This document shows, piece after piece, positions 12,658 to 37,666 of a stretch of DNA of 40,259 bases. This stretch comes from Chloroflexi bacterium RBG_13_51_52 (GTDB lineage Bacteria; Chloroflexota; Dehalococcoidia; Dehalococcoidales; RBG-16-60-22): contig MGMT01000034.1 in NCBI GenBank assembly GCA_001796525.1, forward strand, positions 1 to 40,259, given 5' to 3'. Positions within the stretch are counted from its first letter, which is position 1; each line of letters opens with the position of its first letter. The notes under the pieces were generated by a model. The model was not told the origin of the DNA and searched no databases. It was given only the letters and a program-made list of their open reading frames with translations. Both the position numbers and the translations under genes were made by a program.

Positions 12658-15600
12658 TCACCATTCTGTAAAAATGATATTATCCAGCCACGGCAACCTG
12701 ATAACATTAATTGTCCAGTCTAATTTATCAAGCAGAATATCATGCGTCTGACGTTCCACCTGTACCAGCCAATCACCATTACGGAGTATTAATAATCCCC
12801 GGCGCTGGAGGAACGCAACACGGAAACCCTCGGTGGAGATATTTCCCAATGCTGGCCAGTTTTGGATAACCGATTGGATAAGGTTATCTGATTCCAGCGA
12901 TTCTTTCTTAGATATTTCAAAATCACGCGCGACAGGCTCTGCCAGACTCCTGCCGCAGAGGACTTTATTAAGCGGCAACTCATGTTCGGGAGCTTCTAGA
13001 GAACCATCGACAATATATTGCAGCAGATGGACTGCCCTTTCGCTTGCCTCGGAGTTAACAAAAAATCCTTCCTTCACCAAGTTGACACTTTCAAAAAACC
13101 GGTTTAGAAAAGGCCATAATATAACCAATCCTGTGTTTTGGATATAAATCTCCTTGGAATCATCGACCGATTCGTTTCGGCTTGAAATAGAATACCGCCG
13201 CTCCACATCTCTTGTCCCGATATTGCTATGATACATCGCCTTAATAAATCCACCCACCTTCTCTACTTCGTGAGATGTGATTCCTTGTGTTTCACCTTCA
13301 AAATCACCCGCTGCACGAGGTATTGACTTCATCGCTGAATTCGCCGGTACGCCAGAAATCATGTCATTTAACATATACTTTTTAGATGAATCCGATTGAT
13401 GTTCCGGCTGATATTTCCGTTTCTTAATAGTAGTGACTTTATATTTATTACTTCCTTGGATATTTTTTTCTAATTCAGTCCGATGTAAATCGGAATCGGT
13501 GAGATTGTTTGTCGTTTTTACCCTCGCTCCCATCCCTTTTATCGCTACCCCTTTATTTACTTTTGTGAATTCGGCCCGGCGTTCGCTATTCGGCAAATCG
13601 GCATCTATAAGGTTTTTTTCTAATGGCTTGGCCTGTTTCTTTGAGTTTTTTCTGGTCGATTGTTTCATTGTTGGTGTATAGTCTGGTATTGCCTTTTCCG
13701 ATTCCTGACTTCGTACCTTTACAGCTTTTTTCATCCTGATATTTTGATGGGCTAATCGGAGTGCTGCGTTCAATTCATGCTGTAATTCCCGGATTTGATT
13801 TTTAGTTTCTGATAATATTTCTTTTTCAAAAACAGCCCGGATTACGCTTTCAAGCCGTGAAGCCACTTCTTTTTCGAGATATGGTAATGATATAAACTGC
13901 TCCAGTAATCCTAGGATTTCTTCATATTTTGTATATAACTCTGTTTTTCTCCTATCTCCAGGAAGCAGTGTCTTGCGTGATTTAGTCCTTCTGTTATTCG
14001 ACGTTGTTTTTTCTTGCCGTATATAAGGATAGTTAGAGTTAATATCCTGCTGAAGTGCCGCAATTATTGATTCTGCTCGCCGGAGCAAGTTTTCACTTTC
14101 AGCGCTTGTGCCGATCATCCTACCTGGTACAGTCGAATATTTCTTTTGAAGTTCATTCTTTTCAGGGTATATTTTTGAATTGGAAACACTATTTTTAATT
14201 AGCAGTTCATTCCCCGATGATTTTAGATTTCGTGACAGGCTTCCATCTTCAGGCATTACACCGGAAATCTCAACCGGCGTCGCCAATGATTCTCCTTTAA
14301 TTTTATTCTTGACACTGTGTTTTTCAGATTTGGTAAAATTTTTCTTCTGCGTCAGATTGTGAACCAGTACTTCCAGGCGTTCCAATATTTTTATATTTTC
14401 AGCGGGTAATATTCTGCGTTCTACCGAGCGTAGTCCTTTAATCAACTCCTCAAACCAGACCTTGTATTCAGAGGAATCCCCGTTTCTGGATAATATTTTG
14501 GTAATATTTTCCAGTTTTTGAAGGTGCTGATTCACTAAAAGCGAATGTTTTGCAGTCGATTCTCGGGCAACACGTTTAGGAGTGGCAGGCACCCGATTAT
14601 TTTCGGTAATAGGCGATTCTGATTTGCGGACGGATTGCTTCGCCGGGCGGGCAATAAAATCTCCTGCCTTTATCAGCTTTAAAAATGATTTAATCGCCCT
14701 TTCAAGCGAATCCATGGTTTCTTTCAATCCGTCTTCTTGATTGTTCCATCGCGCACGCAGTTTCTTTCTTGTCTTAGCCAGTAAAAACTCCAGTTTTCGG
14801 ATTAACTCTTGCTGTTCACGTGTCTGTATTGTGTTTTTTACTTTATTTGAAAGCCCTTCAGGTGATTGTGCTGCAGCCTGAAGTTCTGGTAACATATCTC
14901 CCTGAACTTGCCTATTGAAAGAATTATCGGATACTAGAGTTGCTAGCACTTTACTTATATGAAGTCCGTTTTCGCCGAATTTTTCGGCAGCTTGTCTGAC
15001 GGCCCATGTAAGTTCTTTGTACGCTACCCCGAACCTCCGGGAGAGACGTATCAGTAGTTCACCACTAAAGCGGATTAAATCCGACTGCTCCTGCGGCGTA
15101 CCAACGATAAAAGGGAAAACTTCACTCCAAAACGCCAGTCTGCTTTCACTTCTCGAGTATTTCACCCCAACATCAGCAAGTAAAAAGGCTTCGATAAAAG
15201 CCGGAAGAAACCGGCGAAAAACGGGGTGAAATTTCCGGAGTATAGCCCCGGCTACTGACAGGAGGACACGGTTAGGGAACTGGTAGACCAGCCGTTTAAG
15301 CTTGGCCGCATCGGAAACCAACCGAATAACGATATCCGCTAAATCATCCGGCGATTCTGCCACCAGTCGCTTGAGATTGCCCTCGATTTCCCCGGAGTCC
15401 ATCTTGTCCGCCCACCAGGGTAGAGTACCGGTATCAATAAAATATTCGAATAGTTTCAGCCGCGAGACATGCTCGGGTATTGCGTGGAAGCCTTTCACAC
15501 ATATTCCTGCGGATATATCTTCGCTTTCCATGCATCCTGTCTCTGCCTTCAATAAATCCATTAGCCTAGATTCCGTCCTGGCGGGCAGTTCCGTTTCCAA

Positions 15601-15816
15601 TTCGCCGAGGAGAATAGAGCCAACATCAATACACAAAGAATCAAACCGATGGACGACGTTGGGGCTTCCGACCTCGTTGCAGCACGACTCGATGACCGGG
15701 ACGACACTTTCCCGATAAATCCTGCTGACTGTATCCTGTACCCGGTGGGCAGTCGCCGGAGACGGCAGTACCAGCTCTAAAACCTGGTTTTTGATGATGT
15801 GCCTTGGTGTGGTCAT
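12658..15816 (-). CDS. contractile injection system tape measure protein (Afp14-like)
   Basis: It is 1052 aa. The conserved C-terminal block I associate with eCIS tape measures is present: GLVILWPFLNRFF...AVHLLQYIV...PLNKVLCG...LIQSVIQNWPALGNIS..GFRVAFLQRRGLL...LPWLDNIIF. The N-terminus has a block with FDSLCIDVGSI. The centre is long, K/E/S/N-rich and helical. Confidence 0.75.
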   Translation of the reverse strand: MTTPRHIIKNQVLELVLPSPATAHRVQDTVSRIYRESVVPVIESCCNEVGSPNVVHRFDSLCIDVGSILLGELETELPARTESRLMDLLKAETGCMESEDISAGICVKGFHAIPEHVSRLKLFEYFIDTGTLPWWADKMDSGEIEGNLKRLVAESPDDLADIVIRLVSDAAKLKRLVYQFPNRVLLSVAGAILRKFHPVFRRFLPAFIEAFLLADVGVKYSRSESRLAFWSEVFPFIVGTPQEQSDLIRFSGELLIRLSRRFGVAYKELTWAVRQAAEKFGENGLHISKVLATLVSDNSFNRQVQGDMLPELQAAAQSPEGLSNKVKNTIQTREQQELIRKLEFLLAKTRKKLRARWNNQEDGLKETMDSLERAIKSFLKLIKAGDFIARPAKQSVRKSESPITENNRVPATPKRVARESTAKHSLLVNQHLQKLENITKILSRNGDSSEYKVWFEELIKGLRSVERRILPAENIKILERLEVLVHNLTQKKNFTKSEKHSVKNKIKGESLATPVEISGVMPEDGSLSRNLKSSGNELLIKNSVSNSKIYPEKNELQKKYSTVPGRMIGTSAESENLLRRAESIIAALQQDINSNYPYIRQEKTTSNNRRTKSRKTLLPGDRRKTELYTKYEEILGLLEQFISLPYLEKEVASRLESVIRAVFEKEILSETKNQIRELQHELNAALRLAHQNIRMKKAVKVRSQESEKAIPDYTPTMKQSTRKNSKKQAKPLEKNLIDADLPNSERRAEFTKVNKGVAIKGMGARVKTTNNLTDSDLHRTELEKNIQGSNKYKVTTIKKRKYQPEHQSDSSKKYMLNDMISGVPANSAMKSIPRAAGDFEGETQGITSHEVEKVGGFIKAMYHSNIGTRDVERRYSISSRNESVDDSKEIYIQNTGLVILWPFLNRFFESVNLVKEGFFVNSEASERAVHLLQYIVDGSLEAPEHELPLNKVLCGRSLAEPVARDFEISKKESLESDNLIQSVIQNWPALGNISTEGFRVAFLQRRGLLILRNGDWLVQVERQTHDILLDKLDWTINVIRLPWLDNIIFTEW

Positions 15817-15975
15817 GATATTCTTGAGAACCCTACGCTTTTATAGCGCACCCGATAGAGATACAGTCGACAGCAGGGGGTTTAAAGTAATCCGGCAATA
15901 AAAGCGTTAAGGTGCTTTCTTTATCCAGTTATGGGTTATTCTCCCCCTTTTTGTATGAATTAAGCTTGAGCATGC

Positions 15976-36558: not shown

Positions 36559-36664
36559 GAGTTGAAAAGTGGAATGGAGGGATGCAAAAAAAATATCCGT
36601 AATACTTTCCGGACTGAATCAGATATGATAAATAATCTTTAGAAACTAATATTCAGGAAAAAAC

Positions 36665-37666
36665 TCAAATAGTTTCATCATTTATTAAGCGTTGGTGAAG
36701 AGAGATAGTGAGGGGCTCAGGTTTAATTCCCAATTCGGTTGTGACCGTTTTGTCACAGACTTTATACCATTGTATGGCTCGGTTACGTTGGCCGAGGCGA
36801 CTGTAACACCGCATCAAGTGACGGTAGCCTTCCTCGCAGCATGGGTCTTTGGCTAAAATTTTACGGCAGAATCCAATACAGTTCTCATAATCGGCTGCCT
36901 GCGCAGAATACGTGGCAAGCTTTATTAAAATGTTCAGGTAAGTGTCTTTTAAAGCCTCCCGTCTCATCAATGTCCAGTCTTCGTAGAGGTCTTCTTCGAG
37001 GTAATCGCCCTTGTAATAGCTCTCCGCAGCCAGATAAGCGGCTATCGCCCCGGGGAAATTACCTTCACTTTCATGACGCTGCCCGTTGAGCCATTGCTTT
37101 TCAAATTCCTCGTCGTCAACCAGCAAAGTCATGTTCGGATTGATTAAATAGTGACCTTCAATAAAATGAATGTACATGAAACCGCTCCTCTCCGGAGAAA
37201 CGGAGCCGAGAGTCTTCCTCAGGGAGTGAATCGCAGTTTTTAAATTACTGTTCGCCAGGTCAGGTGGGCAGTCCTGCCACAGGGCTTCCATCAACATATC
37301 CTTGGAAATCAGATGCTGACGCTGGACGATAATGTATTTAAATACAGCCTTGGCTTTAAGGCTATACCACTGTTCGATCCGGTGACAACCGACAAAAACC
37401 TCAAAATTACCGAGGCAGTTGACCTGCAGGCAGGAGATATCCTTGGATGAATCGCGTTTGTTGACTGTAGAAAGAGTGATTTCTAAAACATCCTGCAATT
37501 GCCGTTCAACGGCGTTTTCCCTGCCACTGAATAATAAGCAGACTTCCTCCATCTGCTTTTTAGCCTGCTGGTAATCATGATGCACGGTATGTAATAAATC
37601 AATAACCGCTTGCCATTGCTTCTGAACAGTATCTTCGCTTTGTCCTGCAGGGTCTCTAGTTTTCAT
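36665..37666 (-). CDS. SARP (AfsR/DnrI/RedD)-family transcriptional activator
   Basis: It has an OmpR-type winged-helix domain (LQVNCLGNFEVFVG...KAKAVFKYIIV....ISKDMLMEALWQD......NLKTAIHSLRKTLG). It also has a BTAD domain (YKGDYLEEDLYEDWTLMRREALKDTYLNIL...EGYRHLMRCYSRLGQRNRAIQWYKVCDKTVTTELGIKPEPLT). An ~80-aa N-terminal extension precedes these. Confidence 0.85.
   Translation of the reverse strand: MKTRDPAGQSEDTVQKQWQAVIDLLHTVHHDYQQAKKQMEEVCLLFSGRENAVERQLQDVLEITLSTVNKRDSSKDISCLQVNCLGNFEVFVGCHRIEQWYSLKAKAVFKYIIVQRQHLISKDMLMEALWQDCPPDLANSNLKTAIHSLRKTLGSVSPERSGFMYIHFIEGHYLINPNMTLLVDDEEFEKQWLNGQRHESEGNFPGAIAAYLAAESYYKGDYLEEDLYEDWTLMRREALKDTYLNILIKLATYSAQAADYENCIGFCRKILAKDPCCEEGYRHLMRCYSRLGQRNRAIQWYKVCDKTVTTELGIKPEPLTISLHQRLINDETI

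Follow-up and report, generated by a model that had tools for sequence, protein, structure and literature searches.

Introduction

The closest described relatives of the gene cluster reported here are two contractile injection systems (CISs). AlgoCIS of Algoriphagus machipongonensis is an extracellular CIS (eCIS) of clade Ib (PDB 7ADZ/7AEB; PMC8894135). Its cargo proteins combine a disordered N-terminal domain, which acts as the loading sequence, with an optional DUF4157 domain and a variable C-terminal domain (PMC8894135; 10.64898/2026.05.27.728243). Its ATPase Alg15, including the Walker B glutamate, is needed for cargo loading and not for assembly (10.64898/2026.05.27.728243). The second relative, the thylakoid-anchored CIS (tCIS) of Anabaena (PDB 7B5H; PMC8894136), is held in place by a transmembrane (TM) helix in Cis13 (All3316) and an extension of ~500 residues in Cis12, spanning residues 610-1100 of All3315 (PMC8894136). 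We analysed contig MGMT01000034.1 of Chloroflexi bacterium RBG_13_51_52 (assembly GCA_001796525.1), a stretch of 40,259 nt that we refer to as the window, the minus strand of which carries a CIS gene cluster, and compared this cluster with the described systems and with CIS loci of other phyla.

The family is already well catalogued, with thousands of loci, and its close structural homologues (AlgoCIS, tCIS) have been solved. BTAD and DUF4157 are known shell and core domains of eCIS loci (PMC8213781), and mini-fibres with H-lectin or SLL2-like tips have been catalogued for eCISs (PMC12923769). No conserved sequence is known for eCIS signals (PMC8894135; 10.64898/2026.05.27.728243; PMC11297309). 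An initial annotation of this DNA, made from the sequence alone, had regarded such machines as uncharacterised in the host lineage. This survives in part: our literature search found no paper on a CIS in Dehalococcoidales or Dehalococcoidia, but eCIS genes have already been catalogued in Chloroflexi (PMC8910223, PMC10020575), and class IId loci have been reported there (PMC10020575).

Gene content of the cluster

The listing of open reading frames (ORFs) and Pfam scans traced a run of minus-strand genes without break from 36448 down to 12658. All genes of the run lie on one strand with intergenic distances of -4 to 159 nt, and the whole cluster, with its regulator, occupies positions 12658-37666 of the window (~25 kb, minus strand). 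Very probably, the run is one ~24-kb operon encoding a CIS of the Afp/PVC superfamily. The features are listed below from the regulator to the left edge; L001 is the same cluster in a second Dehalococcoidales metagenome-assembled genome (MAG), R24_90, and L011 and L012 are contigs at least 99.7% identical to the window.

36665 to 37666, minus: SARP/AfsR-type regulator, 333 aa (winged helix plus BTAD/TPR; BTAD 9e-22, Trans_reg_C 1e-4)
36485 to 36566, minus: conserved non-coding block, putative promoter/regulator site (window versus L001)
36224 to 36448, minus: small conserved ORF, 74 aa, first gene of the operon (called as a gene in L011; 78% identical in L001)
35540 to 36184, minus: cap or tail terminator (Afp16, DUF4255; Pfam Pvc16_N 1e-27)
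33524 to 35473, minus: contractile sheath, 649 aa (Pfam Phage_sheath_1C 4e-13, Phage_sheath_1)
33030 to 33491, minus: inner tube, Afp1-like (Pfam Phage_T4_gp19 2e-33; 98.7% identical in L001)
32426 to 32914, minus: second tube, Afp5-like (Pfam Phage_T4_gp19 1e-28)
32256 to 32426, minus: DUF5908 small protein, Afp6-like, 56 aa (PF19265, precomputed in L011/L012)
31555 to 32232, minus: tube initiator, Afp7-like (Pfam CIS_tube 4e-47)
29752 to 31551, minus: spike, VgrG/Afp8-like, with C-terminal beta-helix repeats (Phage_base_V 3e-22, weak Phage_GPD)
29280 to 29732, minus: sheath initiator gp25, Afp9-like (Pfam GPW_gp25 9e-25)
25488 to 29255, minus: baseplate wedge Cis11 (gp6/J, Afp11-like), 1255 aa (PDB sequence matches; Pfam-negative)
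24745 to 25491, minus: mini tail fibre candidate, 248 aa (position of Anabaena Cis13, conserved N-terminus)
22601 to 24748, minus: baseplate wedge Cis12 (gp6/gp7-like, Afp12-like), 715 aa (PDB sequence matches; Pfam-negative)
21560 to 22588, minus: cargo candidate 1, 342 aa, leader plus predicted Cys-His papain-fold toxin domain
21098 to 21544, minus: spike tip, Afp10/PAAR-like (Pfam CIS_spike_tip 2e-28)
20090 to 21085, minus: cargo candidate 2, 331 aa, leader plus probable His-Me finger nuclease
18910 to 20043, minus: cargo candidate 3, 377 aa, leader plus probable His-Me finger nuclease
17739 to 18886, minus: AAA+ ATPase, Afp15/Alg15-like, disrupted (Pfam AAA, 17957-18886)
17157 to 17726, minus: DUF4157/eCIS_core protein (HExxH), 189 aa, with a weaker leader (Pfam eCIS_core 1e-27)
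15976 to 17136, minus: cargo candidate 4/5, 386 aa, leader plus orphan 300-aa C-terminal domain
12658 to 15816, minus: tape measure, Afp14-like, 1052 aa, last gene of the operon (Pfam CIS_TMP 1e-109)
12490 to 12566, plus: tRNA-Val(GAC), left island edge, outside the machine (ARAGORN, Rfam)

Both the sheath and the gp19-type inner tube were recovered by Pfam and PDB matches, and the baseplate set is all present (CIS_tube, VgrG, gp25, spike tip, and the Afp11-like and Afp12-like proteins). The DUF5908 call comes from a 55-56-aa gene at the same position in L011/L012 and not from a scan of the window ORF. No Pfam, NCBIfam or PDB match was obtained for the 74-aa ORF (36224-36448), and NCBIfam added no family for the orphan proteins. 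PDB sequence searches with the 248-aa fibre, the tape measure, cargo 1, cargo 3, the 386-aa protein and the 74-aa ORF returned nothing useful except a weak fibre match.

The initial annotation had read the locus as an Afp/PVC-type CIS, and Pfam and PDB matches located every part that it listed on the minus strand where it had placed them; its sheath, tube, VgrG and gp25 calls all obtained Pfam matches. Its parts list and gene order were correct, except that the spike-tip gene (21098-21544) had been left out. Its LysM tube initiator is indeed a tube initiator (CIS_tube 4e-47), with LysM below Pfam significance. It had also described tight coupling of the genes, and both 4-nt overlaps (25488/25491 and 24745/24748) are real, but the remaining gaps run from -1 to 159 nt and not from 2 to 25 nt. 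Its description of the locus as complete fails in this sequence, in which the ATPase gene is split by a deletion of ~199 nt.

Sheath and baseplate comparisons

Among PDB entries, the sheath matched AlgoCIS Alg2 best (454 bits, 8e-135), followed by tCIS All3325 (435 bits, 3e-129), SalCIS (377 bits), Afp3/Pvc3 (227 bits, ~3e-66) and the Streptomyces CIS (~166 bits), with T4 and pyocin sheaths scoring below 40. The two baseplate wedges repeated this pattern, with AlgoCIS and tCIS far above Afp and PVC: Cis11 matched Alg11 (4e-113), All3317 (4e-109), Pvc11 (5e-44) and Afp11 (4e-34), and Cis12 matched All3315 (7e-113), Alg12 (2e-91), Pvc12 (9e-32) and Afp12 (1e-26). By this ranking of bit scores, which is not a tree and takes the clade of All3325 as given, the system belongs to clade Ib, the group of AlgoCIS, MAC and T6SS-iv, a subtype of T6SS (type VI secretion system).

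Phage sheaths aligned with only the C-terminal 29% of the sheath protein at no more than 37% identity, compared with ~50% for plasmid-borne eCIS sheaths. The sheath also has a region, at residues ~250-420, in which an insertion domain of ~85 residues is tandemly duplicated (37% identity, E 2e-11); the plasmid-borne sheaths cover ~65-70% of the protein and lack the duplicated insertion.

Two alternatives could be set aside at this point. The initial annotation had argued that the locus is not a classical T6SS, and this was borne out: Pfam scans of the window ORFs found neither TssJLM nor ClpV, and no TM-like segment was present in any protein of the locus. A tCIS was likewise rejected, as the protein at the Cis13 position has no TM helix and Cis12 is 715 aa in length versus 1335 aa for All3315.

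Candidate cargo proteins share an N-terminal leader

Five proteins of the operon (of 342, 331, 377 and 386 aa and, more weakly, the 189-aa DUF4157 protein) open with a related, hydrophilic leader of ~50 residues. Ten leaders align to the consensus M..v.e...k.nqS.a.A.IV.q.k..gq...eF.DNR.eaaaQRKLq, with a core of F-x-DNR-P-E-A-x-A-QRKLQ, and the C-terminal domains behind it are unrelated. The 331-aa and 377-aa proteins illustrate this arrangement, being 56% identical over residues 1-52 with nothing detectable beyond. The same leader is present on the cargo genes of two related clusters, on metagenome contigs L098 and L099. A hidden Markov model (HMM) built from the ten leaders found ORF N-termini in 12 of 80 CIS loci of other phyla and in none of 80 control loci (1.08 Mb of Dehalococcoidia DNA). 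The leader-positive CIS loci belong to Pseudomonadota, Thermodesulfobacteriota, Nitrospirota, Bacteroidota and others. The matching ORFs lie near the CIS ATPase (loci L028, L040, L048, L059, L063, L065, L072, L075, L076, L078, L087 and L093). Since published work knows no conserved eCIS signal sequence, we regard the leader as a small new observation.

The domain behind the leader of cargo 1 (residues ~110-270) had 76 relatives among 1.84 billion representative sequences, in which C169, H170 and H221 were invariant; 20 of 46 relatives carried eCIS_core/DUF4157 and 3 of 46 carried RHS repeats. In an AlphaFold2 (AF2) model, residues 140-270 were predicted with high confidence (pLDDT >90), and residues 1-101 were mostly below 50 and disordered. 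The best fold matches, all non-significant, were CHAP, NlpC/P60 and C39 papain-like peptidases. The family conservation and the model suggest that this is a Cys-His papain-fold toxin.

Cargo 2 (331 aa) and cargo 3 (377 aa) matched Endonuclea_NS_2 at 2e-3 and 7e-4, respectively, both below the Pfam cut-off. A GHLL...NLAPIT...N motif is readable in cargo 2 and a GGHLIAH motif in cargo 3, and the GH...N motifs of both proteins are typical of His-Me finger nucleases, which both probably are. Cargo 2 is 67% identical and cargo 3 is 38% identical to a cargo gene in L099. For the 386-aa protein, Pfam, NCBIfam and PDB gave no match, and none of the fetched loci contained a homologue; both it and the 342-aa leader protein were without a homologue in the ~90 fetched CIS loci. 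These two proteins look like lineage-specific cargo acquisitions. Of the fetched CIS loci, 41 contained homologues of the DUF4157 protein. Cargo sets vary from the window to L098 and L099, and structural genes are conserved.

A deletion in the ATPase gene

The ATPase gene of the window is split over two frames (17957-18886 and 17739-18197). Relative to intact copies, the window lacks ~199 nt inside the gene, which shifts the frame at a junction near 18053-18064, and the deletion is flanked by imperfect CAAT(T/A)TGGT repeats. Alignment identified the lost peptide, KYIGETEKNL...ILFFDEADSLFGRR...CPNMV, as the Walker B region. An intact ORF of 446 aa is present in ENA ERZ28563994 scaffold_55 and in ERZ4902897 (L014, L015), which are otherwise 99.2-99.9% identical to the window, and the intact protein is ~50% identical to hundreds of CIS-linked ATPases. 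Neither the deletion allele nor the exact tape measure of the window is on record in the gene index.

The deletion is either a real minority variant or an assembly product. We lean towards a real deletion, because an imperfect repeat of 9-10 nt is an unlikely cause of a de Bruijn mis-join. If it is real, the variant should still build particles, but these would be empty. An apparent 22-nt insertion splitting Cis11 in one assembly was discarded as a scaffold N-gap and not biology. It lies at ~28904-28949, where scaffold_55 has a run of N and two contigs of ERZ4902897 end at the same point; this shared break suggests local strain heterogeneity or a coverage problem.

A candidate mini tail fibre

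The 248-aa gene (24745-25491) has cis11 on one side and cis12 on the other, which is exactly the position of cis13. Over its N-terminal ~124 residues it shares 30-37% identity with ORFs from eCIS loci in other phyla (17 loci matched in all), and its C-terminal half is lineage-specific. A weak match to the Bdellovibrio fibre bd2133 (1e-3) was also obtained. The AF2 model was confident only for residues 129-229, a C-terminal beta-sandwich whose best folds were H-type lectins (Helix agglutinins, SLL-2, discoidin) and a phage tailspike C-terminus, at non-significant E-values of 7e-3 to 8e-2. The protein has no TM segment. As the N-terminal attachment region is conserved and the C-terminal tip is variable, we read it, with moderate confidence from sequence and model, as a putative mini tail fibre. 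With this protein read as a fibre and the anchoring features of tCIS absent, an extracellular mode is favoured, again with moderate confidence.

Gene order and regulation

The initial annotation had noted that the gene order departs from the Afp/PVC archetype, and the comparison made this stronger than claimed. The tape measure is located downstream of the ATPase in the window and in L098 and L099/L100, whereas all 72 comparison loci (those loci of other phyla, from the set L017-L096, in which both genes are present) have it just upstream. The arrangement common to the window and these related loci is Cis12, (cargo), tip, cargos, ATPase, DUF4157, (cargo), tape measure. The spike-tip gene has moved from the position between gp25 and Cis11 into the cargo block. 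This rearranged order is seen only in the window and its related loci, and it gives no cause to expect a different mechanism.

The SARP/BTAD gene adjoins the cluster in L001 too (84% identity), and the 74-aa ORF is also kept in R24_90. SARP-type regulators are typical of Actinobacteria, and NCBIfam AfsR/SARP models gave weak matches to the regulator. Only one intergenic stretch is well conserved when the window is compared with L001. It lies upstream of the 74-aa ORF, at ~36485-36566, and contains two copies of TTAACC ~20 nt apart (roughly two helical turns) together with an A/T-rich -10-like element. These features fit a SARP-type direct-repeat site, and we propose the stretch as a putative promoter and regulator-binding site. 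Promoter and terminator scans gave counts at background level.

Host, flanks and island status

DnaE of the window is 86-90% identical to that of Dehalococcoidales MAGs, and the best 80 loci were all from Dehalococcoidia or Chloroflexota. On these sequence identities the host is assigned as an uncultured Dehalococcoidales bacterium, in agreement with the Dehalococcoidia-like host of the initial annotation. The left flank comprises a ferredoxin-like gene, a comF-like gene, hpf, ogt, radC, an M50 protease, dnaE, Lit, two membrane proteins and tRNA-Val(GAC). The right flank, followed on neighbouring contigs for 5 kb past the window, contains a URO-D-like gene, a 337-aa gene and fatty-acid and thiolase-type genes. 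An ORF without a stop runs off the right end of the window (39251-40259, plus strand); it is the start of the 337-aa gene, which has no Pfam match and follows the URO-D-like gene. The minus-strand ORF at 39185-39517 is probably spurious.

In the five nearest relatives, the left flank is retained gene for gene up to tRNA-Val, with no CIS gene after it. Because these syntenic relatives lack the cluster beyond the tRNA, we conclude that it is a chromosomal accessory island at a synteny break. In the relatives, the tRNA is followed by unrelated housekeeping genes (an oligopeptide ABC transporter; PPDK, a carboxylase and others). The tRNA-Val(GAC) gene (12490-12566, plus strand) and the two membrane-protein genes (10834-12311, minus strand) form a block that is conserved in relatives. 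As the genome diverges right after the tRNA in every relative examined, we regard this position as a hotspot of variable content despite the lack of an integrase. No integrase and no att-like direct or inverted repeats of at least 10 nt were found flanking the island, and integrase-type insertion at tRNA-Val is unsupported given the lack of att-like repeats.

MAG R24_90 (L001/L113) carries the same cluster, regulator and 74-aa ORF in a different neighbourhood. Relative to the window, its sheath is 85% identical and its tube 98.7% identical, compared with only 76% for DnaE. CIS proteins that are more alike than DnaE, in a different neighbourhood, suggest lateral movement of the cluster within Dehalococcoidales. 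Related clusters were also found on the JGI metagenome contigs L098 and L099 and in a further Dehalococcoidales MAG; a word-indexed protein search with the tape measure had returned three proteins, two of which led to L098 and L099. L098 probably derives from the same organism as R24_90. A tape-measure pattern scan of genome contigs for the remainder of the L001 locus found nothing.

Discussion

We favour, as the likely overall reading, a clade-Ib CIS encoded on an accessory island, with a putative SARP/BTAD activator of divergent lineage just upstream, leader-bearing cargo and free particles that inject other cells. The analysis shows gene content and homologies, and likewise the host, that the cluster is an island, that a leader is shared and that the ATPase is broken. 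Assembly, release, target and cargo activities we infer by homology to AlgoCIS, PVC and Afp. By that analogy, the baseplate (VgrG, tip, gp25, Cis11 and Cis12) would nucleate the tube, the length of which would be set by the 1052-aa tape measure; the sheath would polymerise round the tube and a Pvc16-type cap would close it. The AAA+ ATPase would recognise the shared N-terminal leader on four to five cargos and thread them unfolded into the tube lumen. The presumed cargo set is a Cys-His papain-fold hydrolase, two probable nucleases, an orphan domain and the short DUF4157 protein. Particles would lie free in the cytoplasm until released on lysis, and would bind the target through six trimers of the 248-aa mini-fibre, with its lectin-like tip, before contraction and injection.

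Several points weigh against this reading. The ATPase is disrupted in this copy of the cluster. Clade membership leaves the mode open, as clade Ib includes eCIS, tCIS and T6SS-iv. The fibre call combines the place of the gene, conservation at the N-terminus and a fold match short of significance, and the nuclease calls lie below Pfam thresholds. Neither a lysis gene nor an immunity gene for the presumed nucleases is visible at the locus. Expression, assembly, release and target are predicted.

Of the alternatives, the one that survives best holds that the machine is real but not extracellular, working in or on the cell that makes it: it would either serve in the cytoplasm, in stress or cell death, as the Streptomyces CIS does, or be anchored in the manner of T6SS-iv or tCIS. 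We consider this unlikely. Although the mini-fibre occupies the gene position of Cis13, the tCIS membrane anchor, both anchoring features are absent, with no TM helix at that position and no 500-residue extension of Cis12. Clade Ib does contain T6SS-iv, and the second-best structural match is the thylakoid-anchored tCIS, yet no membrane protein is encoded in the locus and the best (non-significant) fold matches of the fibre's terminal beta-sandwich are lectin and tailspike receptor-binding domains. The lack of a lysis cassette in the locus would suit this alternative; the Streptomyces sheath match, however, is much weaker (166 versus 454 bits), and the cargo domains are of polymorphic-toxin type, found on RHS proteins too.

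Somewhat less probable again is that the cluster is a decaying, non-functional relic in this lineage, with the ATPase deletion as its first visible lesion. The ~199-nt frameshifting deletion does take out Walker B, but it could be a minority variant or an assembly product, and two independent assemblies with 99.2-99.9% identity across this region carry an undamaged ATPase gene. All 19 remaining genes are long, intact ORFs (up to 1255 aa). Dehalococcoidales genomes are small, and the cluster is absent from the five nearest relatives, both of which would fit a relic; the orthologous clusters in L001/L098 and L099, however, are intact, with structural genes conserved and cargo variable.

A prophage tail module or R-type tailocin, which would explain the sheath, tube, gp25, J-like and tape-measure genes common to myovirus tails, is rejected as highly improbable, as the initial annotation had also argued: every gene specific to eCISs is there (Pvc16_N cap, AAA+ ATPase, DUF4157, CIS_TMP, CIS_tube, CIS_spike_tip and DUF5908), housekeeping genes lie on both sides, no head or capsid, portal, terminase, integrase or lysis genes occur in the 40-kb window or ~5 kb past its right end, phage sheaths match 29% of the sheath protein at no more than 37% identity, and there are no att-like repeats at the island. 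The Afp15-type AAA+ ATPase is absent from phage tails and pyocins.

The reading of free, cell-injecting particles can be taken one step further, with more doubt than confidence on our part. The leader may be a sequence-defined, phylum-spanning loading signal read by the Afp15-type ATPase, and the cluster may represent the first functional CIS in Dehalococcoidales, armed against neighbours in anaerobic consortia. If this is true, cargo would be predictable by a simple HMM and the signal would be transplantable; the arms would be a papain-fold (possibly cell-wall) hydrolase and nucleases, directed at neighbours in those consortia.

Dehalococcoidales grow slowly and anaerobically, have small genomes and live as members of tight consortia, and to our knowledge protein-injection machinery has not been described for them. 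A patchy, apparently mobile 25-kb system suggests that they engage in antagonistic or manipulative cell-cell interactions. Knowledge of how CIS machines are built is unchanged by this locus. The details worth keeping are the under-studied host order, the Walker-B deletion allele, the phylum-spanning leader and the lineage-specific gene order. Practical value is modest: the system is a compact one of clade Ib, whose fibre is very short and whose four or five cargo genes begin with one recognisable leader, and a natural Walker-B deletion allele beside intact alleles could inform cargo-loading rules and eCIS engineering.

Comparison with known systems

The Streptomyces cytoplasmic CIS (class IId) resembles this system in having a regulator linked to the cluster and a monoderm host. 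It differs in its sheath, which matches at 166 bits (8BKY) versus 454 for AlgoCIS, and no CisA-like membrane protein is present here.

With Afp (Serratia) and PVC (Photorhabdus), both of clade Ia, the window shares the Afp1-16 parts list, cargo signals at the N-terminus and an ATPase of the Afp15/Pvc15 type. They are much weaker sequence matches, at about 3e-66 for the sheath and 1e-34 to 1e-44 for Cis11. The sheath is encoded here by one gene rather than three, and the order differs, with the cap first, the tape measure last and cargo mid-cluster. The long fold-back Afp13 fibres of Afp and PVC have no equivalent here.

Cis12 finds its best match in the Anabaena tCIS, which is also close to best for the sheath and Cis11 and has the same order of cis11, a small fibre-like gene and cis12. 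Unlike in tCIS, the fibre-position protein has no TM helix, Cis12 lacks the extension at residues 610-1100, no Cis19 crown protein was found in the window locus, and the host has no thylakoids.

AlgoCIS matches the sheath and Cis11 best, and Cis12 strongly. The two systems differ in gene order, as the tape measure is last here, behind the ATPase, and the spike tip lies within the cargo genes. They also differ in cargo number (four to five here, most without DUF4157, versus two DUF4157 cargos in AlgoCIS), in the fibre (a 248-aa mini-fibre between cis11 and cis12 here, the Ig-like Alg19 in AlgoCIS) and in Cis12 length (715 versus 933 aa). No counterpart of the Alg16B cap adaptor was identified in the window locus, and the host is a Chloroflexota anaerobe, unlike that of AlgoCIS. 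Both systems have a long Cis11, a DUF4157 protein and an AAA+ ATPase and lack membrane proteins, and in both the cargo, known or predicted, joins a disordered N-terminal domain to variable C-terminal domains.

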